From contig CALESR010000270.1 of NCBI GenBank assembly GCA_937907485.1, forward strand, positions 3,200-67,199: DNA of 64,000 bases. The letters run 5' to 3'. A program made the translations under genes and the position numbers. Position 1 is the first letter of the stretch. Each line of letters opens with the position of its first letter. This document shows positions 1-23,740 of this stretch, one piece after another. This DNA comes from an uncultured Rhodobacteraceae bacterium (lineage in GTDB: Bacteria; Pseudomonadota; Alphaproteobacteria; Rhodobacterales; Rhodobacteraceae). The notes beneath the pieces are model-generated. The model worked only from the letters and a program-made list of their open reading frames with translations. It ran no database searches and had not been told where the DNA came from.

Positions 1-2
1 CG

Positions 3-743
3 ATCCCCGGCTTTGCCATTCTGGCGGGCTATGAGGCGGTGCGCGTGCTGCGGCCGCTGTTCGTCACGCCCGAGAGGGTTCTGGCCTGCGAGTTCCAGCG
101 CCTTGATGCTGCGCTCTTTGGCTTTGGCAGCGGCCTGACCCCGGCGGATTTCTTTGCCCGCCATCACGGGCTGGTGGCGGATCTGGTCTTTGGCCTGCCC
201 TATACCGTGTTCTGGGCGATGGTGCTGCTGTGGTGCGTGCTGTTGTTCCTGATCTCGCGCGGGCGGTTTCGGCGCTATCTGTGGGTGCTGGCGCTGACGC
301 ATCTGGCGGCCTTTGTCGTCTGGATGCTGCTGCCCGCTGCGCCGCCGTGGTATGTGCGCGCGCATGCCTGCGTCATCGACCTGAGCGTCGCGCCGCAGGC
401 CGCTGCCCTCAGCCGCCTCGATGCGCTGTTCGGCATCCGCTATTTCGAGGCCTTCTATAGCCGCGCGCCCACGGTCTTTGGCGCCTTTCCCTCGCTGCAT
501 GTGGCCTTTCCGGCGGTGGCGATGGTGACGGGCTGGCGCTGGTTCGGTCCGGCGGGGCGGGCCGTCACCGCCGCACTGACCCTGTGGATGATCGCGGCGA
601 GCGTGTATCTCGATCACCATTGGCTGATCGACGGGCTGGCGACGCTGGGGCTGGTGCTGGCGCTGCACGCTGTGCTGGTGCGGCTTTGGCCGGCCTATGC
701 GGCGCCCGATCCGGGCGCGCGCTGGCGCGAGGGGCCGCGATGA
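3..743 (+). CDS. Aur1-like inositol phosphorylceramide synthase / PAP2-superfamily phosphotransferase (5'-truncated by window edge)
   Basis: Frame is open from base 3. Membrane protein with PAAPPWY, VFGAFPSLH and YLDHHWLID, which parallel the fungal Aur1 conserved blocks (PAxxPWY, FGAFPSLH, HHYFVD) including both catalytic His and the Asp. Confidence 0.78.
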   Translation: MPGFAILAGYEAVRVLRPLFVTPERVLACEFQRLDAALFGFGSGLTPADFFARHHGLVADLVFGLPYTVFWAMVLLWCVLLFLISRGRFRRYLWVLALTHLAAFVVWMLLPAAPPWYVRAHACVIDLSVAPQAAALSRLDALFGIRYFEAFYSRAPTVFGAFPSLHVAFPAVAMVTGWRWFGPAGRAVTAALTLWMIAASVYLDHHWLIDGLATLGLVLALHAVLVRLWPAYAAPDPGARWREGPR

Positions 744-1891
744 CCCTGGAAATTCTGCCCGTGCTGGACCGCCGGTTGCTGGCGCAGTTCATCGACCTGC
801 CGCCCGCCCTGTATCAGGGTCTTGCGGGCTTTGTGGCGCCGCTGCGGATGGAGCGGGCGATGATGCTGGACCCGCGCAAGGCGCCGTTCTTTCGGCGCGG
901 GACGGTGCGGTATTGGCTGGCCCGGCGCGACGGGGTGACCGTGGGGCGGATTTCGGCGCAAATCGCCGCGGATCGGCCGGTCGGCGTGCCCGAGGCGACG
1001 GGCATGTTCGGCTGTCTCGATGCGATTGATGATCGCGCGGTGATCGCTGGGCTGATCGCCAAGGCCGAGGGCTGGCTGGCGAGACAGGGTTGCCGCCACG
1101 CCTTTGGGCCCTTCATGCTGAACATGAACGGCGAGCCGGGACTGCTGATCGACGGTTTTGAACAGCCGCCGATGACCCAGACGCCTTGGCACCCGCCCTA
1201 TCTGCGCGGCCATCTCGAGGCTCTGGGCTATGCCAAGTGGAAGGATCTGAATTCGTGGCGGCTCGATCTGCGCGGGGTCGAGGCCGCCACATTGCGCCAG
1301 TCCCTGCGCCTGCCGCGGCGGCGCGGCGAGGTGACCGCGCGGCCGATCACCCGGCGGTCGTTGCGGGCCGACCTGCCGATCCTGCGCGACCTTTACAACG
1401 ACGGCTGGCGCGACAACTGGGGGCATGTGCCGCTGAGCCTCAATGACCTGCAGGGCCTGCGCCTGCTGGCGCCCTTCCTGCCGCGCGAAACCGGCCGGGT
1501 GATCGAAATTGACGGCGCACCCGTGGCGATCTTGCTGGGCATTCCGGACATTTTCGAACTGTCGCGCGGGTTGGGGCCGCGGCCCTCGCCGTTGGGTTGG
1601 CTGCGGCTGGCCTGGCGCTCGCTGCGCTTTCGGCCGCGCAGCGGGCGCATCATCGTGATGGGGATCGCCGCGAACCTTCGCTACAGCGCTGCCGGGGCGG
1701 CGATCCTGTTGACACTGCTCGACGAGATGATCGACCAGCAGCAAGCCCTCGGCCTCGAGGCAATCGAAGGGGGCTGGGTATTGGAAGATAACGTCGCATT
1801 GACACGGCTGCTGGTTCGTTACAACTTTGCCGCCACACGGACTTTTCGCATCTTCGGCAAGACCTTCTCCGACGATGCCAGCCAGGGATAA
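740..1891 (+). CDS. bcerS: GNAT-fold acyltransferase of the YghO/bacterial ceramide synthase (bCerS) family
   Basis: ATG at 740 overlaps the upstream stop (ATGA). Motifs GRISAQI, GMFGCLDAIDD, AEGWL, GPFMLNMNGEPGLLIDGF, PWHPPY, GYAKWKDL, YNDGWRDNWGHVP and GWVLEDN match my recollection of this family. It lies near an SPT-like gene. Confidence 0.68.
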   Translation: MTLEILPVLDRRLLAQFIDLPPALYQGLAGFVAPLRMERAMMLDPRKAPFFRRGTVRYWLARRDGVTVGRISAQIAADRPVGVPEATGMFGCLDAIDDRAVIAGLIAKAEGWLARQGCRHAFGPFMLNMNGEPGLLIDGFEQPPMTQTPWHPPYLRGHLEALGYAKWKDLNSWRLDLRGVEAATLRQSLRLPRRRGEVTARPITRRSLRADLPILRDLYNDGWRDNWGHVPLSLNDLQGLRLLAPFLPRETGRVIEIDGAPVAILLGIPDIFELSRGLGPRPSPLGWLRLAWRSLRFRPRSGRIIVMGIAANLRYSAAGAAILLTLLDEMIDQQQALGLEAIEGGWVLEDNVALTRLLVRYNFAATRTFRIFGKTFSDDASQG

Positions 1892-1898
1892 CAGCTCG

Positions 1899-2240
1899 AT
1901 GACCGACAGCGACGTCAACATGGCCCCACCCGCCGAGCCCGAACGCGGCCCGGCGCCAACCGAGTGGCCGGTCCTGCCCGAAGAGGGGATGCTGGACAAG
2001 ATCCTGAAGATCGTGGTCGACGAGGGCAAGGTCGAGGCCGACGCCGTGCAACCCGTGGCCACCTTGGAATCGCTGGGCCTGATCTCGATCGACGTCATCA
2101 GCATCCTGATGGGAATCGAGGAGGAATTCGACGTCTATCTGCCGATGAGCGAGGAACTCTCCTCGGCGCGCAATCTGGCCGAGTTGATCGCCGTCATGGT
2201 CGCGCAGATGCGGCCGGACGAACTCAAGTCCATCGGCTGA
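1899..2240 (+). CDS. Dedicated acyl carrier protein (start may be 1899, 1920 or 1989)
   Basis: Small acidic protein with ATLESLGLISIDVISILMGIEEEFDV. The 4'-phosphopantetheine Ser is retained, in an atypical ISI rather than DSL context. Confidence 0.8.
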   Translation: MTDSDVNMAPPAEPERGPAPTEWPVLPEEGMLDKILKIVVDEGKVEADAVQPVATLESLGLISIDVISILMGIEEEFDVYLPMSEELSSARNLAELIAVMVAQMRPDELKSIG

Positions 2241-2248
2241 CCGGGGTC

Positions 2249-3466
2249 ATGGTGCGGGTCGCAATCACCGGATTTGGCGCCGTCAGTGCGGCTGGCATCG
2301 GCGCCGAGGCCCTGTGGCAGGCCGCGCGTGACGGGGTGTCGGGGGTGCGGCCGCTGGACATGCCCCGCAGCGAAACGCTGCGCGTGCGCATTGCGGCCGG
2401 TGTGCCGGAGTTTGATGCGGCGGCGTTGCTGGGCGGGTCGGTTCCCCGCACCAGCGAGCGCTTCAGCCAGTTCGCGATGGTCGCCGCCGCCGAGGCCGTG
2501 GCGCAGTCGGGGATCACCGCCGAGCAACTGGCCGGGCGACGCAGCGCGACGATCATCGGCACCGGGGTCGGCGGTGTCGGTACGATCGACGACAATTGTT
2601 ATCTCTTTTACAGCGAACAGCACTCCGGCGTGCGCGGCGAGGCGATGTCGGTGCCGCGCGTGATGCCCAGCTCTGCCGTGTCGCATGTGTCGATTGCGCA
2701 TGGCATCACCGGGCCCAGTTTCGGCATCGTCAGCGCCTGCGCCTCGGGGGCACAATCCATCGGCGTGGCGATGCAGATGATTCGGTCGGGCATGGTGGAC
2801 CGCGCGCTGGCGGGTGGCACCGAGGCCTGCATCACCCCGGTGACGATGCGCGGTTGGGAGATGCTGCGCGTGCTGTCACCGCGCGCCTGCCAGCCGTTTT
2901 CGGCGGACCGCACCGGCATGGTGCTGGGCGAGGGCGCGGCGGTGTTCTTGCTGGAATCCGAGGAGTCGGCCCACGCACGCGGCGCGACAGTGCTGGCGTG
3001 GCTGGACGGCTATGGCACCAGCAGCGATGCGCGCGACATGATCCAGCCCGATGCCGAGGGCGCGGCCACCGCGATGCGCGAGGCACTGGCGGATGCGGGC
3101 GTCACGCCGGGGCAGATCGGCTATGTCAACGCGCATGGCACCGGCACCGTGCTCAATGACGTGAACGAGGCCGCCGCCCTGCGCGCCGTCTTCGGAGAGG
3201 CGATTCAATCGGTGCCGGTGTCGTCGTCAAAGCCGATTCTGGGCCATACGTTGGGGGCCGCCGGGGCGCTGGAACTGGTCGTCGCGGTGCAGGCCCTTCG
3301 GCATCAGATGGTGCCGCCGCAGGTAAACCTGACCCGGCCCGACCCGAAATGTGCGCTGAACCTGCCAACCGGCGCGGCGCAACCGGCCGACCTCGACGCC
3401 GTGCTGTCGAATTCCTTTGCCTTTGGCGGCATCAACGCCGTGTTGCTGGTGCGCCGCGCGCCATGA
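2249..3466 (+). CDS. Beta-ketoacyl-ACP synthase II family (FabF/NodE-like)
   Basis: Catalytic Cys-His-His triad in SACASG, NAHGTGT and GHTLGAAG; C-terminal SNSFAFGGINA. The segment WEMLRVLSPRACQPFSADRTGMVLGEG resembles NodE-type enzymes. Confidence 0.92.
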   Translation: MVRVAITGFGAVSAAGIGAEALWQAARDGVSGVRPLDMPRSETLRVRIAAGVPEFDAAALLGGSVPRTSERFSQFAMVAAAEAVAQSGITAEQLAGRRSATIIGTGVGGVGTIDDNCYLFYSEQHSGVRGEAMSVPRVMPSSAVSHVSIAHGITGPSFGIVSACASGAQSIGVAMQMIRSGMVDRALAGGTEACITPVTMRGWEMLRVLSPRACQPFSADRTGMVLGEGAAVFLLESEESAHARGATVLAWLDGYGTSSDARDMIQPDAEGAATAMREALADAGVTPGQIGYVNAHGTGTVLNDVNEAAALRAVFGEAIQSVPVSSSKPILGHTLGAAGALELVVAVQALRHQMVPPQVNLTRPDPKCALNLPTGAAQPADLDAVLSNSFAFGGINAVLLVRRAP

Positions 3467-3864
3467 GCGCCGCGCCGCGCGCCCTTGGCACCTATGAGGT
3501 CACCGTCGAGGCCGCAGCCGCAGCCGCCCTCGCCGCCGCCTTGGGGCGGAGGGGCCCCGAGGGCCCCGTGCCGCTGACCTATCCGCTGATCTGGCTGGCG
3601 GCGCCTGCCGTCCGTCTGGCCTTGCAGGCCGAACTGGCGGGTGAGGGGGCCCTGGCCCTGCCGGTCCACATTGAACAGCGCATTGCGCTGAGCGCGCCCT
3701 TGGTGATCGGTGCGGCCTATCGGCTGGTTCTGACCCTCGACGGTCCCGATGCGCGGCGCATTCTGCGGCTCGACGGCACGCTGCACGACAGCGCCGGGCA
3801 AGAGGTGGGCACCCTGCGCACCGGCCTTGCACTGGTGGCACTGCCGCAGGGCGCAGGCGCATGA
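3463..3864 (+). CDS. Hot-dog-fold protein, probable non-catalytic partner of the downstream MaoC dehydratase
   Basis: ATGA-coupled to the KS. P(L)TYP and PVHIEQRIALSAPLVIG pattern is typical of MaoC N-terminal/HadA-like subunits; no DxNPxH motif. Confidence 0.55.
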   Translation: MSAAPRALGTYEVTVEAAAAAALAAALGRRGPEGPVPLTYPLIWLAAPAVRLALQAELAGEGALALPVHIEQRIALSAPLVIGAAYRLVLTLDGPDARRILRLDGTLHDSAGQEVGTLRTGLALVALPQGAGA

Positions 3865-4259
3865 GCGGCGCGCTGCCTGTCGGTACGCGCCTGCCGGGTG
3901 TCGATCTGCCGCTGGCCGATGCCGAGGCGGTGCAGGCCTATCTGGCGGTGTCTGGCGATGACAACCCGCTGCACCGCGACCCCTCGATGGCGCGCGCGGC
4001 GGGCTTTGACGATAGTCTGGTGCCGGGGATGCTGGTGATGGGCCAGATGGCCGAGGTGCTGCACAATTGGCCCGCCTGCGCCGCGATCGACTGGATGCTG
4101 TGCCGCTTTGTCGATCCGGTGATCGTTGGCACTGCGCTGCGCTGCGAGGGGCGGGTTGTGGCGCAGGATCCTTCGGGAGGCGTGATCCTGCGGCTGACGG
4201 CAGGGGTCGGGCGGCGCCCTGCTGTGGTGGCCGAGGCGCTCATCCGCCCGTCGCCCTGA
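3861..4259 (+). CDS. MaoC-family (R)-hydroxyacyl dehydratase
   Basis: Hydratase motif SGDDNPLHRDPSMARAAGFDDSLVPGML and RFVDPV; ATGA-coupled to the upstream ORF. Confidence 0.82.
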   Translation: MSGALPVGTRLPGVDLPLADAEAVQAYLAVSGDDNPLHRDPSMARAAGFDDSLVPGMLVMGQMAEVLHNWPACAAIDWMLCRFVDPVIVGTALRCEGRVVAQDPSGGVILRLTAGVGRRPAVVAEALIRPSP

Positions 4260-5367
4260 GGCGTCGGCGCATCCGCCAGCCGCCGATCCCCAGCGCCAGC
4301 GCGCAGCCCCCCAACACTGCGACGGGCAGGCCCCAGGCGGCCCAGACCGGCGCGATGCGCCCGTATTCCCCCAGCGCGGAAAAGACGTTGCCGCCCAGAT
4401 TCAGCGCATAGGCCGCGCCGAGGATGACCAGCGGCGTCATCAGCCCGCGCCGCGCCGCCAGCCAGCGCAGGCTGAGGCTGGCGACCAGCAGCGCCATCGC
4501 CACCATGGCGGCCAAGGCCGCATGGCGCTCGTTCAGTGCGGCGCGATAGGCGTCGGCGGCCGGAACGCCGCCCGCGGCGTGCGCAATGCGCGTCAGTGCG
4601 TCCTGCGGCACCAGGCGGGGCTCGACCCCGGCATGGGCCAGCCAGTCGGTGTTGATGGCCAAGGGCACGCGGGCGTCGCTCGGGCCCCCGGCTGGCCAAG
4701 TGGCATGGGCGCCCGTCAACAGAACGGCGCCGTCAACCGGGCGCGCCTCGTCAGCCCAGATCACCCGCTCCAGCCGGTTTTCGCCGTCCAGAAGGAACAG
4801 CCGCAGATCGACCAGCACCGGCCCTGTGGCCTCGAACCGCAGACCGGCATGGACCAGCGCCGCCCCGAAATCATGCCATTCGGGCGGCGCGCTGCCGCCT
4901 GCGAAGCCTGCGCCGTAATAGCGAAACCCGGCCTCGCCCTGCGCCTTGACGGCATGGGGGCGCACATGGGCCAGCAGCGCGACTTGCGCCAGACCAAAGG
5001 CCACCCCGACCACCAGCGCGGGCATCAGCGACAACAGGGGCGCCCGCCCGGTGTTGGCGATCATCGCGCGCTCGTGCCCGCGTGTCAGGTCGAATTCCAC
5101 CCAAAGGATGCCGATCCCCATGCCGATCGGCAGGATTGCAGGCAAGTTGTAGAGCGCACGCAGCCACAGATACCAGGCCAGACGGGGGGCGCCCTCGGGC
5201 ATCGCGGCCACGCCCTGGGCCGTCAGCACCCGGTCGTAATGCCCGGCCAGATCCAGCGCCAACACCAGCGCCAACGCCAGCGCCACCACCAGCGCGGTGC
5301 GCAGTGCATAAAGCCGGGCGACATAGCGGGTTTCCAGCCCGAAGACGGCGAGCGGCGGGCGGGTCAC
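4240..5367 (-). CDS. LptF/LptG-family permease (LptG-like paralog)
   Basis: GTG at 5367 overlaps the stop of the upstream permease. RYV..Y N-terminus, three N-terminal TMs, LPAILPIG...E..M...G motif, periplasmic beta region, three C-terminal TMs with P..AAW.P. Confidence 0.7.
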   Translation of the reverse strand: MTRPPLAVFGLETRYVARLYALRTALVVALALALVLALDLAGHYDRVLTAQGVAAMPEGAPRLAWYLWLRALYNLPAILPIGMGIGILWVEFDLTRGHERAMIANTGRAPLLSLMPALVVGVAFGLAQVALLAHVRPHAVKAQGEAGFRYYGAGFAGGSAPPEWHDFGAALVHAGLRFEATGPVLVDLRLFLLDGENRLERVIWADEARPVDGAVLLTGAHATWPAGGPSDARVPLAINTDWLAHAGVEPRLVPQDALTRIAHAAGGVPAADAYRAALNERHAALAAMVAMALLVASLSLRWLAARRGLMTPLVILGAAYALNLGGNVFSALGEYGRIAPVWAAWGLPVAVLGGCALALGIGGWRMRRRLRATGG

Positions 5368-6524
5368 AATCGTATCCCCTGAGGCAGAACCGATCCCGGC
5401 AAAAGCCGGGCCATCAGCCACGACACCAGCGCGACCAGTGCCAGCGCCAACCCGGCCACCGAGGCCAGGGCCGCCCCAGGCGGCAGACCGCCCAGCAGCG
5501 CCGCGCCCGGCGACAGTGCCAGCCCACCGCCGAGCACCGCACCCAAGGCCACCGGCAGCGCCGCCAACCGCAGCGGTCCGCGAGTCGCCGCCAGCGCCAG
5601 CCCGGCGATCAGCGGCGCGGTCAGTGCCAGCGCCATGCCCAGCACCCGTTCCAGCGCGACCTGTCCGGCGCGCGCATTTCCGCCGAACCAGTCCTGCACC
5701 ACCTCGGGCAGGGTCGCCGTGCGCAGGGTTTCCCCCGGGCCCGGTGCGCCCGGCAGGTCGATGCGCACCGGACCCAGACGCATGCGCTCGACAGCGATCT
5801 GCAGCCCGGCGGTGCGCGTCTGCCCCTCGGTGCGGGAGAACTGGATGATCCGTGCGCCTTCGAGGTCGAGCGCGCCACTCGCCGCGCCGGTGTCGAGGAT
5901 CAGCCGGGTACGCGCGGCGGTGACCACTTGCTCTTCATCGGGATTCGGCCTGAGGAAAACGAAACTGCGTGCCCCGTCGCGGCCCTGCGGCTGCTGGTAA
6001 AAGGTCGTGCTGCCGATGCTCAGGAACCGCCCCTCGATCAGCTGCCCCTGTCGCACGGCCTCGAACTGCGCCTCGATCAGGCGCTGCGTCAGATGCCGGG
6101 CCGCCAGAGGTTCGACAAAACCGCGTAGGCCACCGGCGAGGGTCATCGCGACCAGACCCAGCAGCAGGCAAAAGCCGATCAAGGCGCGCGGTGGCACCCT
6201 GGCCGCGGCGAGAATCACCAGATCACCCGCCTCGCGCCGTCGCAGCAGCGCCAGATAGACCGCGATCACCACCGCCAGTGGCAGGCCGACCGACAGGATC
6301 TCGGGCGAGGCCAGAACCAGCGTCTGAGCAAGGAACCCCAGCCCCAACTGGTTGCGCAGCGTGTCGAACAGCAGATGCGTGACCATCTTGTCGGAAAGGT
6401 AAAGCGCCTCGACCGCCAGAAGCATCAGCGCCATCTGCCCGATGACCTCGCGGCCCAGCACACGCAGATAGCGGCGCGGCAGGCGGGCGGTTCGGGGCGT
6501 GGCGAGCTGGGGGGCGGTTTGCAT
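5364..6524 (-). CDS. LptF/LptG-family permease (LptF-like paralog)
   Basis: RRYLRVLGRE, PEILSVGLPLA..IAVYLALLRRREAGDLVILAAA, FVEPLA and IEGRF follow the YjgP/YjgQ pattern. Confidence 0.75.
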   Translation of the reverse strand: MQTAPQLATPRTARLPRRYLRVLGREVIGQMALMLLAVEALYLSDKMVTHLLFDTLRNQLGLGFLAQTLVLASPEILSVGLPLAVVIAVYLALLRRREAGDLVILAAARVPPRALIGFCLLLGLVAMTLAGGLRGFVEPLAARHLTQRLIEAQFEAVRQGQLIEGRFLSIGSTTFYQQPQGRDGARSFVFLRPNPDEEQVVTAARTRLILDTGAASGALDLEGARIIQFSRTEGQTRTAGLQIAVERMRLGPVRIDLPGAPGPGETLRTATLPEVVQDWFGGNARAGQVALERVLGMALALTAPLIAGLALAATRGPLRLAALPVALGAVLGGGLALSPGAALLGGLPPGAALASVAGLALALVALVSWLMARLLPGSVLPQGIRL

Positions 6525-6531
6525 GGGCGGG

Positions 6532-7272
6532 CTATCGCGCTGGGCCAAGCCAGAGCGCCCGCAGCGCCGGGTCGCCGGCGATCTCGTCAGGGGGCGCGTC
6601 ATGCAGCACGATGCCCTGCGCGATCACGACCACGCGGTCGCAGATCGACAATGTGTCGTGCACATTGTGGTCGGTGACCAGAATGCCGATGCCCCGCGCG
6701 GCCAGATCGCGGATCTGCGCCTTGACCTGTGCAATCGACAGCGGGTCGAGCCCGGAAAACGGCTCGTCCAGCAGCAGATACCGTGGCTGAACGGCAAGGA
6801 GCCGGGCGATTTCGCAGCGCCGCCGTTGCCCGCCCGATACCTGCCGCGGTTTGGCGTCCCGCACCTCGGTCAGGCCCATGTCGCTCAGCAGAGTCTCCAG
6901 TCGCGCCTCGCGGATGGAGCGGTCGGGTTCGTGGTTTTGCAGCGCCAGACGGATATTGTCGGCCAGGCTGAGGCCGCGAAAGGCCGAGGGTTCCTGCGGC
7001 AGATAGCCAAGGCCGCAGCGCGCGCGTGCGTAAGGTGCAAGGCCGGTCAGGTCGCGTCCGTCGAGCAGCACTCGGCCACGGTCGGGCGACTCGGCGCCGG
7101 TCAGCAGGCGGTAGATCGTGGTTTTCCCGGCGCCATTCGGCCCCAGCAGACCGACGATCTGGCCGGGTTGCACGGCAAAGCTGGCATCCGCAACCGCCTG
7201 CACGCCGCGATAGCGCTTTGACAGACCGACCGCAGCTAGCGAGGGCAGGGTGTCAGGGGGGCCGTCGGTCAT
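6532..7272 (-). CDS. LptB-like ABC ATPase
   Basis: Walker A GPNGAGKTT, LGYLPQEPSAFRGL, signature VSGGQRRRCEIAR, Walker B LLLDEPFSGLDP, and the LptB-typical GIGILVTDHNVHDTL. ATG at 7272 is coupled to the upstream stop. Confidence 0.9.
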   Translation of the reverse strand: MTDGPPDTLPSLAAVGLSKRYRGVQAVADASFAVQPGQIVGLLGPNGAGKTTIYRLLTGAESPDRGRVLLDGRDLTGLAPYARARCGLGYLPQEPSAFRGLSLADNIRLALQNHEPDRSIREARLETLLSDMGLTEVRDAKPRQVSGGQRRRCEIARLLAVQPRYLLLDEPFSGLDPLSIAQVKAQIRDLAARGIGILVTDHNVHDTLSICDRVVVIAQGIVLHDAPPDEIAGDPALRALWLGPAR

Positions 7273-8261
7273 GACGCCGATTTCGGCCCGGACGGCATCG
7301 CGCCCAGTCCCAGTGCCACCACGCCGACGATCAGCACCGTCACCAGCATGAGGCCTTGATGCAGCACGCCGATGGCGATGGCCTGCGCAGGGGGGGTGCC
7401 CAGCGCGGCATAGGTCGAGACCACCGCCAGGGCCTGTGGGCCCAGATGCACCGGCGCCAGCGGCAGCAGCGACACCAGACTGATCGAGGCCACCGCCAGC
7501 AGCGCCAGCGCGGGCGAGGCCTGAATACCCAGCGCGTGCTGCAGCGCCAGCGCGGCGGCGACCTCGAGCGCCTTCTTGGCCAGCGCCAGTATGGTTCCCG
7601 GCACCAGCACCCGGCGGCGCAGCAACTGCCCGACGTCCGACGCATAGCGGGCGATCACCCCGCCGATCCGCGCCGTCCAACGCTGCCCAAAGCGGCGCAA
7701 AGCGAAGAGCAGCAGGCCCAGTCCCAGCATCCCGGCGGTCAGCGCAAGGGTCGCGTGGCGCAGCGACTCTGGCAGCGGGGCGAGCGCAAGAGCCAGCGCC
7801 AGCAAGGCCAGTTTGGCCGCTCCGGCCAGCACCTGATCGAGGGTCATGACCCCCGTGGCCTCGGCCGGCGTCAATCCGGCATGGGCGTGCAGCGCCGCGG
7901 CCCCCGTGGCGACACCGCCGAGGCCGGACACCGCAAACCGCGCGCCGATCGACAGCGCGACAACCTGCGCCATCACCGGCCAGCGCACCCGGCGCAGCGG
8001 TGCGGCAAGGCACCGCCATTGCCAGACCCAGAGAGGATAGACCGCCAGACTGGCCGCCAGCGCCAGCGCCAGCAAGGCAGAATCTGTCGCGGCCAGTGCA
8101 AGGCCGACCTGCTGCCACGGCGTCAGAACGATCCCCAGAACCAGCAATCCGCCGATGACCAGCGCCGCACCCGCCACCACCAGCCGCCGACCTCGGCCCA
8201 AAGGGCCAGTCGAGCGCAGCGGCGCATGCAGCGAGGCTGCGTCGCGATGTCCTATGCGCAT
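7269..8261 (-). CDS. YbhN/UPF0104 (lysylphosphatidylglycerol synthase TM domain) flippase-like membrane protein
   Basis: Polytopic hydrophobic protein with W.W..L, LPLAPVHLGPQ..AV...Y..LG and A.AIGVLH.G, the typical LPG_synthase_TM layout. Start is uncertain. Confidence 0.68.
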   Translation of the reverse strand: MRIGHRDAASLHAPLRSTGPLGRGRRLVVAGAALVIGGLLVLGIVLTPWQQVGLALAATDSALLALALAASLAVYPLWVWQWRCLAAPLRRVRWPVMAQVVALSIGARFAVSGLGGVATGAAALHAHAGLTPAEATGVMTLDQVLAGAAKLALLALALALAPLPESLRHATLALTAGMLGLGLLLFALRRFGQRWTARIGGVIARYASDVGQLLRRRVLVPGTILALAKKALEVAAALALQHALGIQASPALALLAVASISLVSLLPLAPVHLGPQALAVVSTYAALGTPPAQAIAIGVLHQGLMLVTVLIVGVVALGLGAMPSGPKSAS

Positions 8262-8340
8262 GCCGGGGTTACCAACTGGCTGGTGAAGGGGACAGAAGCT
8301 TGATATCTGGAATTGTTAGTCAAATCAGGATGAGAAAGCA

Positions 8341-9423
<1,083 letters not shown>

Positions 9424-9444
9424 GGGCGGTGGCGACAGGGGCGG

Positions 9445-10677
9445 ATGATGGGCGAGGGCGCGGCAACCGGACGGTCGTTCAACGAGGTGATGGGCAAGCG
9501 CATTGCCCGCGCGTTTCAGCGCGTTGCCGAGGGGATGAGCGCCGACGAGTTCAACCGCTCTGGCGCGCGGGAGGCCTTTTTTGCCCCGATCGACGCATTG
9601 GAGTCCGCGACCACGGCGCAAGGTGGGCAGTTTCTCAGCTTTGGCCATTACGACTATCTCGGGTTGACGCGGCACCCTGCGGTGATCGAGGCGGGGGTGG
9701 CGGCGCTGCGCCAGCATGGCAGCGGTGCGGGCGCCTCGCGGCTGGTCGGCGGCGAAAGGCTGGCCCACCGCGCGCTTGAAACCGCGATGGCGCGGTTCCT
9801 CGGGGTGGATGCGACGCTGGCGGTCATCAGTGGGTATCTGACCAACCTGTCGCTGATCCCGCATCTGCTGACCGCAAAGGATCTGCTGATCCTCGACGAT
9901 CTGGCGCACAACTCGATCGCCAGCACGGCCCGCATTGGCGGTTATGCCTGCCGGACCTTTGCTCACAACGATTGCGACGCGCTCGAACGTATCCTGACCA
10001 CGGAACGTGCCCGCTATCGCCATGTGCTGATTGTCACCGAGGGGCTGTTCTCGATGGATGGCGACATCCCGGACCTGCCGCGGATTCTGGCGCTCAAGGA
10101 GGCCCACAACGCCTGGCTGATGCTGGACGAGGCGCATTCCTATGGCGTGCTGGGGGCGACAGGGCGCGGCATCACCGAACATTTCGGCGTCGATCCGCGA
10201 CGAGTCGATATCTCGGTCGGCACGTTGTCCAAGAGTTTCGGCGCCTCGGGCGGGTTGATCGTCGCCGCCGAGCACGTCATCGAATGGCTGCGTTATACAC
10301 TGCCGGGCTTTGTGTTCAGCGTCGGCCTGTCGCCGGTTGCCGTGGCGACGGTGCATGCGGCGCTGGATCTGCTGATCGCCGAGCCCGAGCGACTGGCCCG
10401 CATGAACGAGGCGTCGCGGTATTTCCTGGCGCAGGCGCGGGCGGCGGGGCTGAACACTGGCCCGGCGATCGGAACGGCGGTGGTGCCGGTGATCTTTGCC
10501 GATACCCAGCAAACCATGCTGGCGGCCCGGCGGCTGCGCGAGGCGGGCATTTATGCCCCGCCGGTGGCGACGGTCGGCGTGCCCTCGGACAGTCCGCGCA
10601 TTCGGTTTTTCCTGACGGCGAATCACACAACCGCCGATATCGACCGCGCGATAGCCGTGCTGGTCGGGTCAGCCTGA
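9445..10677 (+). CDS. PLP-dependent alpha-oxoamine synthase, serine-palmitoyltransferase-like (RkpG/WcbT-type)
   Basis: YDYLGL, SGYLTN, DLAHNSI, EGLFSMDGD, DEAHSYG, and PLP-lysine motif GTLSKS. The family is certain; serine/acyl substrate is inferred from context. Confidence 0.85.
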   Translation: MMGEGAATGRSFNEVMGKRIARAFQRVAEGMSADEFNRSGAREAFFAPIDALESATTAQGGQFLSFGHYDYLGLTRHPAVIEAGVAALRQHGSGAGASRLVGGERLAHRALETAMARFLGVDATLAVISGYLTNLSLIPHLLTAKDLLILDDLAHNSIASTARIGGYACRTFAHNDCDALERILTTERARYRHVLIVTEGLFSMDGDIPDLPRILALKEAHNAWLMLDEAHSYGVLGATGRGITEHFGVDPRRVDISVGTLSKSFGASGGLIVAAEHVIEWLRYTLPGFVFSVGLSPVAVATVHAALDLLIAEPERLARMNEASRYFLAQARAAGLNTGPAIGTAVVPVIFADTQQTMLAARRLREAGIYAPPVATVGVPSDSPRIRFFLTANHTTADIDRAIAVLVGSA

Positions 10678-11484
10678 CGGGCCTTCGCCCTCGCCCGGAT
10701 CGGGGGCACTGCCGGTGTGTTTCAGACTGTAGGTCAGGATGCGGTCGACCAGCGCGTCTGGCGCCAAGGCCCCCAGCGCCACCGCCAGCCGCAGGGGCCA
10801 GGGAAAGGCGCTGATTCGCGCGCCGCGCGCGACGTCGTGGGCGATGCGCTGCGCCGCGCGCTCGGCGCTCCACAGCCAGGGGCGCGGGGTGGTCAGCGAC
10901 TGGCTCATCGGGGTATCGACAAAGCCCGGCAGCACCAGCGTCACCGCAACACCCTGCGGGCGCAGCAACCGGCGCGTCCCCTCGGCATAGATCCTGAGGG
11001 CGGCCTTGGACGCGGAATAGACCGGCGCCTGCGGCAACCCGATGCCCCCCTGAACCGAGCCGATGATGACCACATGCCCGGCGCCGCGTTGCGCCATGCG
11101 GGGCTGCAAGGGAGTCAACGTGTTCAGCACGCCCATCATGTTCACCGCCATCAGGTCGCGGGCCTGCGCGCCCCGCTCGCCGCCCGGTGGCGCCAGTGCG
11201 CGCCCGCCGCCCAGGCCCGCCCCGGCGATCACCAGATCGACCGCTTGCCGCTGGTCGCACCCCTCGATCCAGGGTTCCAGGCGGTCGTGGTCGGTGACGT
11301 CGATGCGGGCGGCCTCGACCGTGGCGCCGCGCTGGCGGCAGGCCTCGGCAGTGGCGGCCAGCCGCTCGGCGTCGCGGCCATTGAGCGACAGCGCACGACC
11401 CGGCGCGGCGTAATGCAGCGCCAGCGCACGGCCGATGCCGCTGCTCGCGCCGGTAATCAGCACATGCTGGGGTTTGGTCCGCAT
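10669..11484 (-). CDS. Classical short-chain dehydrogenase/reductase (RkpH/WcbP-like; candidate 3-ketosphingoid reductase)
   Basis: ITGASSGIG, catalytic YSASK, PGFVDTPM; AAGGAG Shine-Dalgarno upstream of ATG 11484. Confidence 0.85.
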   Translation of the reverse strand: MRTKPQHVLITGASSGIGRALALHYAAPGRALSLNGRDAERLAATAEACRQRGATVEAARIDVTDHDRLEPWIEGCDQRQAVDLVIAGAGLGGGRALAPPGGERGAQARDLMAVNMMGVLNTLTPLQPRMAQRGAGHVVIIGSVQGGIGLPQAPVYSASKAALRIYAEGTRRLLRPQGVAVTLVLPGFVDTPMSQSLTTPRPWLWSAERAAQRIAHDVARGARISAFPWPLRLAVALGALAPDALVDRILTYSLKHTGSAPDPGEGEGPSG

Positions 11485-11604
11485 TGAGGGCTCCTTGCCC
11501 TGTGGTGGTATCACGCGCGCCGGGTTCCTCGCCAGTCGGAACGACGGGATGGCGGCTTTGTCGGCCTGTCGCTATGCTGGCCGCGCCGCCAGAAGGGGTC
11601 TGCC

Positions 11605-12207
11605 TTGCGCATCCATGAACCGTTCGTCGAACCCGTTGCCCGCCGTCTGGTGGGGTCCGGCATCAGCCCCGATGCGCTGACGCTGGCCTCGGTGCCACCG
11701 GCGGTGCTCGCCGGGGTCTGCGCGGCCGTCGGCTGGTTCGAGGCGGCGGCGCTGGCCTTCACACTTAGCGGTGTGCTCGACCTGCTCGATGGGGCGCTGG
11801 CGCGGGCGATGGATCGGCGCAGCCGGTTCGGCGCCTTGCTCGATTCGTCGCTTGACCGGGTCGCGGATGCCTGTGTGCCGATCGGGCTGGTGGTGTTTTA
11901 CAGTGCGCAGGGCGGGCTGGCCGCAATCCCGGCGCTGGCGCTGCTGGCGTCGCTGTGGGTCTCGTATATCCGCGCGCGGGCGCAGTCGCTGGCGCTGGAA
12001 CTGCCCCGGCTGTGGATGCGCCGCGAGGACCGCTTTGTCGCGCTGGTGCTGGCGCTGCTGGCGGCGCGCTGGGTGGCGCCCGAGTCTGACGTGCCCGCGG
12101 TGCTGCTGCTGTGGGTCTGCGCTGCCATCGCGGTTCTGGGGATGATTGCCGGTGGCATGGCGCTGGTGCAGGCGGCACGACTGGCCCGTCAACCGCCCGA
12201 GGCGTGA
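11605..12207 (+). CDS. CDP-alcohol phosphatidyltransferase, probable phosphatidylinositol-phosphate synthase
   Basis: Signature DLLDGALARAMDRRSRFGALLDSSLDRVAD, plus SYIRARAQSL and RREDR as in PIP/AIP synthases. Near ino1. TTG start is uncertain. Confidence 0.88.
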   Translation: MRIHEPFVEPVARRLVGSGISPDALTLASVPPAVLAGVCAAVGWFEAAALAFTLSGVLDLLDGALARAMDRRSRFGALLDSSLDRVADACVPIGLVVFYSAQGGLAAIPALALLASLWVSYIRARAQSLALELPRLWMRREDRFVALVLALLAARWVAPESDVPAVLLLWVCAAIAVLGMIAGGMALVQAARLARQPPEA

Positions 12208-13070
12208 TTGCCCCAGTCCGCCGCAAAGACCGCGATGGCCGTGGCGTCATTCTGGCCCGAGCGGTTTGGCCCGTCGGTCAGCGCCTGAATCGCCGAGGCG
12301 AGGGTCTCGACCGGAAAGCTGCGGGTCGGCACCACCAGCCGCGGCACGCCGCGCCGCGCCAGATGCCCCGAGACCCAGACATCATCGACCCAGCGCACGG
12401 CCTCGGGCATGCCCGAGAAATCGTGCACCGCCGCATCCAGCGCCCTCGGCGGCAGCAGATAGCCCCAGGTGCCAAACAGGATATCGACCGGGACCAGCCG
12501 GGTCTGCGCACTGCACAGAACGTGGTGCAGCGCGGGAAACTCTCGCCCCGGCGTCAGGCACACGCCACGCAGGCCCAGCGCGGCGGTGGGGTTCGCCCGG
12601 TGTGCAGTCAGCAGCGAGGCCAGAAAATCGCGCGGATAGACCACGTCATCATCGACAACCACGAGGCAGGCGTCGGGGTCAGCCGCCAGTGTTGGCAACA
12701 GCTTGGTCACCGGGCCTTCGTCGGTGCAGCGCAGCACCTCGACACCGGGCGGCAGACCCAGCGTCTGTGGGTCAGGATAGGCCGCGCCGTCGCGTCGGCG
12801 GGTCCGGGGCAGGCACAGCACGATGCGGTCGGCGGGCTGGGACTGGTCGATCAGACTGCGCAGGACGCGGTGCAGCCGATGCGCGCGGGCGGGAATCGTG
12901 GTCAGCGTCACCACCAGCCGTTCGGGCCGCGGTGTGGCGGGCACTGGAGCGGGCACCCGCCAGCCCAGCCGCAGCGCCCGCAGATACAGCCCGGCGATCT
13001 GCGCCAGACTGGGCTGGCGATAGCGCGCAAGACTGCGGGCGATGTTTTGCAACAGGGGCACTTTGGTCAT
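12189..13070 (-). CDS. GT-A fold glycosyltransferase (GT2-like)
   Basis: VVTLTTIPAR, LRSLIDQS, DEGPVTKLLP, acidic VVVDDDVVYP, late DDVWVSG. ATG at 13070 is coupled to the upstream stop. Confidence 0.7.
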   Translation of the reverse strand: MTKVPLLQNIARSLARYRQPSLAQIAGLYLRALRLGWRVPAPVPATPRPERLVVTLTTIPARAHRLHRVLRSLIDQSQPADRIVLCLPRTRRRDGAAYPDPQTLGLPPGVEVLRCTDEGPVTKLLPTLAADPDACLVVVDDDVVYPRDFLASLLTAHRANPTAALGLRGVCLTPGREFPALHHVLCSAQTRLVPVDILFGTWGYLLPPRALDAAVHDFSGMPEAVRWVDDVWVSGHLARRGVPRLVVPTRSFPVETLASAIQALTDGPNRSGQNDATAIAVFAADWGNHASGG

Positions 13071-20913: not shown

Positions 20914-21434
20914 GGAATGCTCCGTGCAGCCAGCGGGTGTGTCGATCCGTGCCAACCTGTGCCAACAACAGGGCCAAAGATCAAGCGCGGGCGCAAGGCT
21001 CACGGGACTTTGCACGCATGCTCGCGCCCGACGACATGCGGAATTTGTCTGCGTTCGGTGGTTTTGGCGTCTTCGCCAGACCGCAGACCCGCCCGGCGCA
21101 GGGGCGGACCAGACCCGTGGAAATCCGCCCAAATTTTGCGGCTGCAGCAATTCGGGCTTGCGAGAAATATGGCCACGCCTTATCCAGCCGGGTACAACGC
21201 ATGCCCCGGTCGGGCTGCCGTCTTGGTCTTTGGCGCCATGTCGAATGGTCACGGCGCTGCATTCTGGCTCGTCTGGCAGTCTGAAAAAGGCATGTCTTTG
21301 ATCCGTATTGCTCAACATTGTGCAAGATCGAGGGGCTGGCCTTGTGACCCGGTCACCCGGTGTTCTGCGTCGCGCCCCGGTGGATCAGGGTGCCAATTGC
21401 CTGGGCATGCGACTTTCACGGGGACTTTCACGGC

Positions 21435-22739
21435 ATGAAGATTGCGATGATCGGCACTGGCTATGTCGGCCTTGTCTCGGGCGTGTGTTTTTCGGATTTC
21501 GGCCATCAGGTCGTCTGCGTCGACAAGATGCCCGAAAAGATCGCGATGCTGGAACGGGGCGAGATCCCCATTTATGAACCCGGCCTCGACACGGTGCTGC
21601 AGCGCAATGTCGCGGCAGGCCGGCTGAGCTTTACCACCGACCTCGCTGCGGCTGTGGACGGCGCCGACGCGGTGTTCATTGCCGTCGGCACCCCCACTCG
21701 ACGCGGGGATGGCCATGCCGATCTGACGTATGTCATGGCCGCCGCCGAGGATATCGCCTGCGCGCTGACTGGCTATGCCGTGGTGGTGACCAAATCGACC
21801 GTGCCGGTCGGCACCAACCGCAAAGTGGCCGCCGCCATCCGCGCCGCCAATCCAGAGGCCGAATTCGACGTTGCCTCGAACCCGGAATTCCTGCGCGAAG
21901 GGGCGGCGATCGACGATTTCATGAAGCCGGACCGCGTGGTTGTCGGGGTCGAAAGCGAGCGGGCCAAGGCGGTGATCGGCGAGGTCTATCGCCCGCTTTA
22001 TCTGCGCGATTTTCCGGTGGTCTATACCGATCTTGAATCGGCCGAGATGATCAAATACGCCGCCAACGCCTTTCTGGCGACCAAGATCAGTTTCATCAAC
22101 GAGATCGCTGCCCTATGCGAGCGGGTCGGCGCCGATGTCAAATCGGTGGCCAAGGGGATGGGACTGGACGGGCGCATCGGCAACAAGTTCCTGCACGCCG
22201 GGCCGGGATATGGCGGTAGTTGCTTTCCAAAGGATACCTCGGCCCTCACGCGCATCGGGCAGGAGCACGGCGCTCCGCAGCGCATCGTCGAGACGGTGAT
22301 CGCTGTCAACGAGGCCACCAAGCGGCGGATGATCGACAAGGTGGTCGATCTGTGCGGCGGCTCGGTGAATGGCAAGACGCTTGCCGTGCTGGGCGTCACC
22401 TTCAAGCCCGGGACCGATGACATGCGCGACGCGCCTTCGCTGACCATCGTGCCTGCGCTGGTGGGGGCGGGGGCGCGGATTCGGGTCGTTGATCCGCATG
22501 GCCGCAAGGAAGGCGAGGCGCTGTTGCCGGGCGTCGACTGGGTCGAAGACCCCTATACCGCCTGCGCCGGTGCCGACGCGGTGGTGATCCTGACCGAGTG
22601 GAACGCGTTTCGCGCTCTCGACCTCGGGCGGTTGGCGGCGGGAATGGCGCGCCCGGCCATGGCCGATTTGCGCAATATCTATAATCGCGAGACGGCGCAG
22701 CGGGCCGGATTCGCGGCCTATACGGGAGTGGGACGTTGA
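21435..22739 (+). CDS. ugd: UDP-glucose 6-dehydrogenase
   Basis: MKIAMIGTGYVGL, IAVGTP, KSTVPVGT, NPEFLREG, KYAANAFLA, catalytic GYGGSCFPKD, FKPGTDDMR. Confidence 0.97.
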   Translation: MKIAMIGTGYVGLVSGVCFSDFGHQVVCVDKMPEKIAMLERGEIPIYEPGLDTVLQRNVAAGRLSFTTDLAAAVDGADAVFIAVGTPTRRGDGHADLTYVMAAAEDIACALTGYAVVVTKSTVPVGTNRKVAAAIRAANPEAEFDVASNPEFLREGAAIDDFMKPDRVVVGVESERAKAVIGEVYRPLYLRDFPVVYTDLESAEMIKYAANAFLATKISFINEIAALCERVGADVKSVAKGMGLDGRIGNKFLHAGPGYGGSCFPKDTSALTRIGQEHGAPQRIVETVIAVNEATKRRMIDKVVDLCGGSVNGKTLAVLGVTFKPGTDDMRDAPSLTIVPALVGAGARIRVVDPHGRKEGEALLPGVDWVEDPYTACAGADAVVILTEWNAFRALDLGRLAAGMARPAMADLRNIYNRETAQRAGFAAYTGVGR

Positions 22740-23740
22740 GAACAGCCTTCATCACCGGCACAGGTGGATTCATCGGCTTTCATTTGGCCGAGCTTTTGCT
22801 GCAAGAAGGGTGGAAGGTCGCCAGCCTTGACGGCATGACCGACTATTACGATGTCCGACTCAAGGAACGTCGACTGGACATGCTGCGTCAGCATCCGAAT
22901 TTCTCGTTCACGCGCGCGATGCTCGAGGACAATCCGGCAGTGCAAGCCGCCATTGCCGAGGCCAGCCCGGATGTCATCGTGCATCTCGCAGCGCAGGCCG
23001 GGGTGCGTTATAGCCTTGAAAATCCGCGTGCCTATATTGACGCGAACATCGTCGGCACCTTCAACGTGATGGAGGCCGCGCGGGCCTTGAAGGTTGGTCA
23101 CCTGCTGATGGCCTCGACCAGTTCAGCCTATGGCGCCAATACCGAGATGCCCTTTGCCGAGACGCAAAAGGCTGACACCCCCCTGACCATCTATGCCGCG
23201 ACCAAGAAGGCCAACGAGGCGATGGGCCATTCCTATGCCCATATCTATGGCCTGCCGGTGACGATGTTCCGCTTCTTTACCGTCTATGGCCCTTGGGGGC
23301 GCCCCGACATGGCGCTGTTCAAGTTCACCAAGGGGATTCTGGAAGGCACGCCGATCGACATCTACAACAATGGCGACATGTGGCGCGACTTTACCTATGT
23401 CACCGATCTGGTCCGCGGCATCCGCCTGCTGATCGACGCGGTGCCGGGCGGCCCCGAGACCGCGGTCACAGGTGACAGCCTGTCGCCGGTGGCGCCCTTC
23501 CGGGTGGTGAATATCGGCAATTCGGACAAGGTGCGCCTGATGGATTTCATCGAGGCGATCGAGGACCATCTCGGCAAGACCGCGATCCGAAACTACATGC
23601 CAATGCAGACCGGCGACGTGCCCGCCACCTGGGCCGATGCCTCGATCCTGCAGCAACTGACTGGCTATCGCCCGGCAACCGATTTTCGCGACGGGGTGGC
23701 GCGGTTCGTCGAATGGTACCGTGAGTATCACGGCGTCTGA
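22736..23740 (+). CDS. UDP-glucuronate 4-epimerase (LpsL-like)
   Basis: TGTGGFIG, HLAAQAGVRYS, YAATKK, RFFTVYGPWGRPDMA, RDFTYV. TTG start overlaps the ugd stop. Confidence 0.92.
   Translation: MRTAFITGTGGFIGFHLAELLLQEGWKVASLDGMTDYYDVRLKERRLDMLRQHPNFSFTRAMLEDNPAVQAAIAEASPDVIVHLAAQAGVRYSLENPRAYIDANIVGTFNVMEAARALKVGHLLMASTSSAYGANTEMPFAETQKADTPLTIYAATKKANEAMGHSYAHIYGLPVTMFRFFTVYGPWGRPDMALFKFTKGILEGTPIDIYNNGDMWRDFTYVTDLVRGIRLLIDAVPGGPETAVTGDSLSPVAPFRVVNIGNSDKVRLMDFIEAIEDHLGKTAIRNYMPMQTGDVPATWADASILQQLTGYRPATDFRDGVARFVEWYREYHGV

Follow-up and report, generated by a model that had tools for sequence, protein, structure and literature searches.

A predicted alphaproteobacterial inositol sphingolipid cluster that combines a bCerS-family acyltransferase with an SPT–SDR pair

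Gene content of the cluster

The window, by which we mean the whole stretch of 64,000 nucleotides analysed here (G000:C270:3200-67199), comes from a wastewater alphaproteobacterium with a GC content of 68–70%, whose genome is 99.6% complete and in 394 contigs. Its left end holds a predicted sphingolipid cluster in which a bCerS-family acyltransferase, a serine palmitoyltransferase (SPT)-like synthase and a classical short-chain dehydrogenase/reductase (SDR) occur together, and our subject is the enzyme that would reduce the 3-keto group of the sphingoid base. The closest relative with the same cluster (locus L064 in genome G555, an independent metagenome-assembled genome, MAG) is labelled Rhodobacteraceae/Paracoccaceae. 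Open reading frames were called with guidance from the GC content of third codon positions (GC3) and were annotated by profile searches against Pfam and NCBIfam. The genes of the predicted pathway are as follows.

1..743, plus strand: PAP2_3 protein, inositol-phosphoceramide (IPC) synthase-like (PF14378, 55.9 bits); its reading frame begins before the window, by 184 nt, at contig position 3016
740..1891, plus strand: bCerS-family GNAT-like N-acyltransferase, predicted ceramide synthase (family linkage to spt and cerR; tree)
1899..2240, plus strand: dedicated acyl carrier protein (ACP) (PF00550 PP-binding, 27.5 bits, above cut-off)
2249..3466, plus strand: FabF-like ketoacyl synthase (KS) (PF00109, PF02801; TIGR03150 fabF, 401 bits, under cut-off)
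3463–3864, plus strand: HadA-like dehydratase (NCBIfam HadA; PF01575 with its HadB/MaoC-like partner)
3861–4259, plus strand: HadB/MaoC-like dehydratase (NCBIfam HadB; PF01575 with its HadA-like partner)
8341..9423, plus strand: myo-inositol-1-phosphate synthase (PF01658, 124.6 bits)
9445..10677, plus strand: SPT-like alpha-oxoamine synthase, of the SDR-associated clade A described below (PDB matches; tree)
10669..11484, minus strand: classical SDR, proposed 3-keto reductase (motifs; PRK07024; tree; linkage)
11605..12207, plus strand: CDP-alcohol phosphatidyltransferase-family synthase, phosphatidylinositol-phosphate (PIP) synthase-like (PF01066; NF040950, NF045883)

The SDR satisfies the criteria for a classical member of its superfamily in cofactor motif, Asn/Ser/Tyr/Lys set and length: its 271 residues include TGASSGIG at 11–18, N115, S143, Y156-x3-K160 and PG at 186–187, and close homologues carry PF00106, PF13561 and PF08659. 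The first-pass annotation, made from the letters of the window, had recognized the same class from its TGxxxGIG and YxxxK motifs, in agreement with these residues. An AAGGAG ribosome-binding site stands 7 nt ahead of the ATG, and a dN/dS of 0.20 relative to the L064 orthologue indicates purifying selection. The gene is convergent with the SPT gene, their 3′ ends overlapping by 9 nt (10669–10677) with both stop codons inside. The overlap pointed out in the first-pass annotation is thus real, but the two genes lie on opposite strands and therefore are neither co-transcribed nor translationally coupled. The Rossmann motif begins at residue 8, leaving no space for a signal peptide, no transmembrane segment is predicted, and the enzyme is predicted to be cytoplasmic. 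Arg19 and Arg37 are consistent with a classical SDR of the NADPH type, and NADPH is the probable cofactor.

The top NCBIfam model for the SDR is the uncharacterized PRK07024 (183 bits, under cut-off), with FabG models reaching at most 97 bits, far under their cut-offs. In an SDR tree rooted on FabG, the FabG sequences form a distant outgroup (100/100, branch length 3.0), and an assignment as a FabG orthologue was rejected on the basis of this distance and of the low FabG model scores. The window SDR groups with that of L064 (100/100); its grouping with the SDRs of two Phreatobacter SPT–SDR–bCerS triads has moderate support (93/69), and SDRs linked to polyketide synthases (PKSs) form a separate group.

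The bCerS-like protein (383 amino acids, GC3 0.79) has no match in Pfam or NCBIfam, and some of its homologues bear PF00583. Of 400 genomes sampled from the same class, 55 have a full-length homologue with 30–39% identity, and an SPT-like gene lies within 10 kb of the homologue in 28 of the 40 loci that were fetched, most of which also have a CerR orthologue beside spt. Because of this family-wide linkage to spt and cerR, a case of guilt by association, we assign the product to the bCerS family as the predicted N-acyltransferase of a sphingoid base. In the bCerS tree, the window copy falls in a clade (support 98) with the L064 copy, a second Novosphingobium copy in a bCerS–ACP–KS arrangement, and SDR-adjacent copies from genomes G027 and G207, both of which are without CerR.

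The ACP is kept beside bCerS and KS in loci L064–L067. In three of these the bCerS–ACP–KS trio has no SPT, SDR or HadAB genes nearby (L066:9902-12686, L065:857-3539 and L067:1240-3887); the hosts are Novosphingobium album, an uncultured Novosphingobium and an Aestuariivirgaceae MAG, and in N. album the trio contains the second bCerS of a genome that also bears CerR. The occurrence of the trio without SPT suggests that the private ACP/KS module supplies the N-acyl chain to bCerS, not a substrate to SPT.

CerR orthologues and the two synthase clades

The ceramide pathway of Caulobacter crescentus is reportedly made up of Spt, bCerS and CerR, as credited to Stankeviciute et al. in 2022. As a reference for CerR we used the extended SDR of locus L045, in which the order spt, acp, extended SDR, acyl synthetase is the published Caulobacter layout; the top PDB matches of this protein are NDUFA9 39-kDa subunits, matching the description of CerR (PMC11087976). 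Orthologues of it were found in 46 of the 55 bCerS-bearing genomes (109–690 bits, full length), mostly beside spt. The host genome gave a best match of only 37.9 bits in a single-query search and, with a profile built from 22 CerRs, a best score of 129 bits versus at least 347 bits for true CerRs. CerR was also absent from the L064 genome. The statement of the first-pass annotation that the window has no CerR-like gene is thus borne out, and the genome-wide search that it proposed likewise found no orthologue. Directly upstream of the window, where it had reckoned with a possible cerR, the 3.2 kb to the contig end hold a Wzt-like ABC ATPase and a glycosyltransferase, and no CerR.

Two candidates were considered and rejected. 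The gene at 4489–5580 of contig C299, beside uppP, is the sole NDUFA9-like gene in the host genome and the source of the 129-bit score, and we regard it as a housekeeping paralogue because its orthologues, 51–54% identical, sit away from spt and cerR in CerR-bearing genomes. The gene at 22736–23740 of the window (69.9 bits), the second hit of the CerR profile, is the only extended-SDR gene there to score against it; it encodes a nucleotide-sugar epimerase/dehydratase and follows a gene for a UDP-glucose dehydrogenase.

The synthase at 9445–10677 has serine palmitoyltransferases as its top PDB matches (8guh and 3a2b, 1.4e-59), and the synthase tree divides into two clades that differ in the reductase found nearby.

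Clade B, support 99, 23 rows: CerR within 9 kb in 20, the SDR lineage in 0; Caulobacter-type loci
Clade A, support 99, 14 rows: CerR within 9 kb in 0, the SDR lineage in 10; the window SPT, Phreatobacter, Methylocystaceae and all PKS-linked synthases

In one extra clade-A row (G514) the SDR lies 17 kb off on the same contig. The Paraburkholderia and Microbulbifer synthases share 44% identity with the window SPT and only 33% with a Caulobacter-type (clade-B) SPT, and the synthases of L057, L114 and L115 are 44–46% identical to the window SPT. Clade A spans capsule-type loci with PKS, synthase and SDR from Alpha-, Beta- and Gammaproteobacteria. From these relationships the SPT–SDR pair appears as an evolutionary unit common to PKS-linked loci of the Sga, Rkp and Wcb types, and the cluster in the window reads as such an Sga/Rkp-type pair joined to bCerS, not as the Caulobacter route with a swapped reductase. 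The possible hybrid raised in the first-pass annotation is supported in one respect, the pairing of bCerS with an SDR and without CerR, and needs correction in another, since the SPT is not of the Caulobacter type and belongs to clade A with its SDR lineage.

Members of the SDR lineage adjoin bCerS in G027 and G207 (L005, L020), in G211 (L056; order SDR, bCerS, SPT) and twice in Phreatobacter (L081 and L083, from two genomes). Searches of G027, G207, G211 and, of the two Phreatobacter genomes, that of L081 (G553) gave no CerR orthologue. The SDR of G344 (L057) adjoins a second bCerS copy, and the CerR of that genome goes with the first. An SDR of the lineage is convergent with or near a clade-A synthase in G443, G472, G482, G244, G451 and Microbulbifer, and the two share a locus in Paraburkholderia; the convergent arrangement itself recurs in G443, G472, G244 and Microbulbifer, and a type I PKS is part of the locus in G443, G482 and G514. 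Four of five tested members of the host family have the SDR together with a synthase 43–45% identical to the window SPT, and bCerS is absent from all five. In L064 the SPT–SDR pair is embedded between inositol genes in the same order as in the window.

The cluster shares with Caulobacter an SPT-like synthase, a bCerS-family acyltransferase, an ACP and the expected dihydroceramide product. It differs in having a clade-A rather than a clade-B SPT, in lacking an acyl-ACP synthetase, in whose place KS and HadAB stand, and in having a cytoplasmic classical SDR and no CerR, whereas the NDUFA9-like CerR of Caulobacter is reportedly periplasmic. In Pseudomonas fluorescens MYb115, a PKS feeds PfSgaB, whose function as an SPT is proven, and the adjoining SDR, PfSgaC (KW062_RS19775), has been proposed as the 3-ketosphinganine reductase (KDSR) (PMC12134224). 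Compared by description, the SgaA/SgaB/PfSgaC set has the same architecture of chain builder, synthase and adjoining SDR as L057, L106–L108, L114 and L115, and the role proposed for PfSgaC is the one that we propose for the window SDR. The MYb115 system has an iterative type I PKS; the window cluster contains no type I PKS and has instead a discrete ACP, KS and HadA/HadB dehydratases, together with bCerS and an inositol-phosphate head-group set. For the retention of bCerS with a clade-A SPT and an SDR in place of CerR, PfSgaC and the Bacteroides thetaiotaomicron enzyme BT_0972 are partial precedents.

RkpA/RkpG/RkpH of Sinorhizobium meliloti and WcbR/WcbT/WcbP of Burkholderia bring together a PKS, an acyltransferase of the alpha-oxoamine synthase type and an SDR, next to capsule genes of the KpsS/KpsC type. 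The same gene combination is present in L057, L114 and L115, the first of which we take to be an rkp-1 region from its gene content rather than from named sequences. Unlike the window cluster, the Rkp and Wcb systems presumably work for a lipid carrier of the capsule, and we know of no inositol or IPC-synthase-like genes reported there. On a Microbulbifer plasmid (L115), the PKS, synthase and SDR (the last two convergent, with a 20-nt gap) lie amid KpsC/S-, KpsD- and KpsM/T-like genes, and Paraburkholderia dioscoreae pII (L114) carries a capsule protein, SDR, LTA-synthase-family protein, type I PKS, LpxC-like deacetylase, synthase and GNAT protein. Capsule-type loci with a fully reducing type I PKS, a clade-A synthase, an SDR and a KpsS-like gene (L057:440-12891 in G344:C6, L044 in G034:C14, L114 and L115) have a bCerS-like GNAT gene in some cases. 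RkpI was considered as a bCerS-like gene and rejected, being described as a sulfatase/LTA-synthase-type membrane protein. These gene combinations suggest that the 'lipid carrier' genes of Rkp-1 and Wcb loci may make a sphingoid or ceramide-like anchor.

Probable reductase role, reaction order and rival explanations

Taken as a whole, the locus is likely to encode an SPT–SDR–bCerS route to an inositol sphingolipid in which the SDR replaces CerR. The SDR itself is probably the 3-keto reductase of the pathway, in the place that CerR has in Caulobacter; it is the best candidate for the missing enzyme because members of its lineage accompany SPT genes of this clade and, in genomes that lack CerR, bCerS as well. 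The first-pass annotation had suggested a reductase of the Tsc10/KDSR type, and the part of that suggestion that concerns function is favoured by the linkage in 10 of the 14 clade-A rows and by the absence of CerR.

In the pathway that we propose, the clade-A SPT would join serine and an acyl thioester, possibly built by the KS/HadAB module and carried on the ACP of the cluster, to give a 3-keto long-chain base. The cytoplasmic SDR would then reduce the 3-keto group, probably with NADPH, and the bCerS-family enzyme would N-acylate the base. Finally, the PAP2_3 enzyme, with the inositol-phosphate and PIP synthases, would attach an inositol-phosphate head group. Ceramide would probably be made here by a second, more eukaryote-like route.

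We lean slightly towards reduction before acylation, the eukaryote-like order: the synthase–SDR pair occurs in genomes without bCerS, and free 3-keto base is therefore the likelier substrate of the SDR. For BT_0972, itself a classical SDR, KDSR activity has been demonstrated (PMC9278070). Like Tsc10 and KDSR/FVT1, it has the Gly-x3-Gly-x-Gly and Tyr-x3-Lys motifs and uses NADPH to reduce free 3-ketosphinganine before N-acylation, a likeness to the window SDR at the level of motifs; it differs in having been found through activity screening, with no linkage to spt described, and the eukaryotic Tsc10 and KDSR are membrane-anchored. The 3-ketocapnine reductases of sulfonolipid synthesis (CapC/KCR) also use NADPH on the free base and are 21–27% identical to KDSRs (PMC11211663). 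Their pathway runs from an alpha-oxoamine synthase (cysteate fatty acyltransferase) through an NADPH reductase to an N-acyltransferase, the order proposed here, although with cysteate as substrate and in another phylum. BT_0972 and the 3-ketocapnine reductases thus provide biochemical precedents for reduction first in bacteria.

The reverse order, in which bCerS acylates the 3-keto base and the SDR reduces 3-oxo-dihydroceramide in the cytoplasm instead of the periplasm, seems unlikely to us, although no sequence feature decides between the two. Caulobacter cerR mutants build up oxidized ceramide, and the Klein laboratory puts acylation first (PMC11087976). The bCerS of the window is of the same family as that of Caulobacter, and the adjacency of SDR and bCerS in G027, G207, G211 and Phreatobacter would fit this order equally well. 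The pairing of the SDR lineage with clade-A synthases in genomes without bCerS, however, makes the free base the likelier ancestral substrate, and the sgaAB-type cluster of P. fluorescens MYb115 yields free, reduced sphinganines (PMC12134224).

The SDR might also have a different function altogether. The first-pass annotation had offered as its alternative that the SDR is the ketoreductase (KR) of the KS module, that is, a beta-ketoacyl-ACP reductase in a type II system of ACP, KS and HadAB, which would leave the sphingoid 3-keto group to an unlinked enzyme or unreduced. This would account for a module that has a KS and dehydratases and no ketoreductase, for the matches of the SDR to FabG and the actinorhodin KR in the PDB (about 1e-19), and for the conservation of the whole block, SDR included, in L064. 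Yet the SDR accompanies the synthase or bCerS in L005, L020, L056 and L081, which have no KS or HadAB genes, and it also lies beside the L057 PKS, which bears a KR of its own (KS-AT-DH-MT-ER-KR-ACP) and, being fully reducing, needs no extra one. Conversely, the bCerS–ACP–KS trios of Novosphingobium and Aestuariivirgaceae are without an SDR, and the Novosphingobium genome has CerR and no member of the SDR subfamily. With FabG so remote in the tree, many FabG-like genes in the host genome, and the SDR adjoining SPT at a distance of 6.4 kb from the KS module, we consider this alternative very improbable. An RkpG/RkpH-like (or WcbT/WcbP-like) unit that makes a capsule lipid carrier or anchor, and not the backbone of an inositol sphingolipid, is improbable for other reasons: the pair in L064 keeps its place and order between inositol genes, and the host genome has only two alpha-oxoamine synthase genes, so that bCerS and the IPC-synthase-like enzyme depend on this one for any substrate that they have. 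Such a unit would agree with the polysaccharide genes on both sides of the cluster and with the occurrence of clade-A synthases and SDRs in capsule-export loci with KpsS/KpsC-, KpsM/T- and LTA-synthase-like genes (G344, Phreatobacter, Paraburkholderia and Microbulbifer), and rkp-1 products are said to make or modify the lipid carrier of the K antigen (PMC4881576); the two readings are nevertheless compatible, as an Rkp-type 'anchor' may itself be a sphingoid lipid.

A relocated housekeeping SDR with no relation to sphingolipids is scarcely credible. Such a gene, of unknown function, is widespread: it stands in the order fabD-fabG-acpP-fabF-mltG-[SDR]-yicC-gmk in 21 alphaproteobacterial loci from many families (PRK07024-like copies in loci L060–L063 and L086–L105, for example L062:3609-4370), and the window SDR is 39–53% identical to it. 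The host genome lacks the housekeeping copy, its mltG and yicC loci are empty of one, and it has no other member of the subfamily, all of which relocation would explain. Against this, the 21 housekeeping copies form a clade (96/94) that leaves the window SDR out and is sister to the synthase-linked SDRs, and close homologues of the window SDR lie on the same contigs as bCerS homologues. Most of the host family is without the housekeeping gene in any case, the subfamily reaching at least 127 bits in only 7 of 150 genomes, and the SDR is paired with a clade-A synthase in most of the family members tested.

Several points weigh against the SDR as the pathway's 3-keto reductase. For this protein as for its whole lineage, the role rests on sequence and gene context, and the reductase role of PfSgaC is itself a proposal (PMC12134224). 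The absence of CerR was read from draft assemblies, one in 394 contigs and one a MAG. The best 60 matches of the SDR in the PDB are generic SDRs with no KDSR among them, and a search of the ESM Atlas returned generic SDR clusters only and was uninformative. The SDRs linked to synthases come out in the tree as a grade and not as a single supported clade, and the resemblance to the housekeeping SDR is considerable, as given above. The KS/HadAB module has no ketoreductase of its own, and a secondary role of the SDR in it is possible.

Genomes that have SPT and bCerS with neither CerR nor a linked SDR count on the same side, since they imply that other reductases can serve the pathway. In Methylocystaceae, a clade-A SPT and bCerS go together with a desaturase, the only SDR of the subfamily is unlinked, and no CerR orthologue was found in the two Methylocystaceae genomes searched; their operon of SPT, bCerS and a sphingolipid-delta4-desaturase-like gene (Lipid_DES and FA_desaturase) is present at L068:8660-12174 in Methylosinus sporium and in L069–L080 and L084. 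By implication, these methanotrophs would make ceramides with some other reductase. Clade-B SPT and bCerS occur with no CerR orthologue and no linked SDR in G189 (L015, L049) and in G050 and G223 (L058, L059). G189 has no SDR of the window subfamily at E ≤ 1e-25, and in G050 and G223 the subfamily is found only on contigs other than that of bCerS, the G050 copy being the housekeeping one beside yicC and gmk. Either assembly gaps or a third kind of reductase may be responsible.

Whether reduction or acylation comes first when bacteria make ceramide is a matter of open dispute (PMC11087976). The source of reducing power for a periplasmic CerR is unexplained. A pathway with bCerS and a cytoplasmic SDR would offer a clean system in which to ask whether bCerS acts on reduced bases and whether a eukaryote-like order exists in Proteobacteria. 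A survey with Spt, bCerS and CerR as its marker set would overlook a whole class of producers. The two-clade pattern, as read from sequence, would also tie the old 'lipid carrier' genes of Rkp-1 and Wcb capsule loci, including those of Burkholderia, to sphingolipid chemistry. We put forward tentatively, and as somewhat more apt to fail than to hold in full, a broader scheme of two separately evolving bacterial synthase–reductase modules, clade-B Spt with a reportedly periplasmic CerR and clade-A Spt with a cytoplasmic SDR, bCerS having been recruited to both. In this scheme the SDR type would reduce and then acylate in the cytoplasm, Rkp-1/Wcb genes would make sphingoid or ceramide-like lipids, and the product here would be an inositol-phosphoceramide glycolipid exported by a private Lpt-like system.

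Neighbouring genes and related loci

The remaining genes of the cluster lie on the minus strand between the dehydratases and the inositol-phosphate synthase.

4240..8261, minus strand: LptG-, LptF- and LptB-like ABC transporter genes and a flippase-like LPG_synthase_TM protein (PF03739 twice, PF00005, PF03706)

These Lpt-like genes and the flippase-like protein are presumed to form the exporter of the cluster and are context, outside the question of the reductase. The top NCBIfam model for the PAP2_3 protein is NF052609 (phosphoinositol dihydroceramide synthase; 96.8 bits, under cut-off). The PIP-synthase-like gene is divergent from the SDR with a 120-nt spacer between them, and glycosyltransferases lie farther on. 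A UDP-glucose 6-dehydrogenase followed by the nucleotide-sugar epimerase/dehydratase-like gene (together 21360–23740) probably supplies uronic acid to the adjoining polysaccharide locus.

The organism is abundant in data sets from activated sludge. DNA near-identical to 8300–12300 of the window was found in metagenomes of 13 studies, which cover bioreactors, activated sludge, wastewater, anaerobic digesters and soil, and one soil run holds a variant contig with about 57 differences across 3.4 kb of this region. Two wastewater metatranscriptome runs have contigs (95–99% identity) over parts of the inositol-phosphate synthase gene, the SPT gene and the SDR gene (10900–11170), meaning in this coverage being confined to the bins with contigs. 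They give a weak hint of expression, their strand being unknown and carry-over of DNA possible.

Inositol-1-phosphate synthase genes 52–53% identical to that of the window stand beside bCerS or SPT at L019:14726-15817, L022:10560-11663 and L049:863-3116. These loci belong to three other alphaproteobacterial families, with CerR in two of the genomes, and suggest that the class may hold more producers of inositol sphingolipids.

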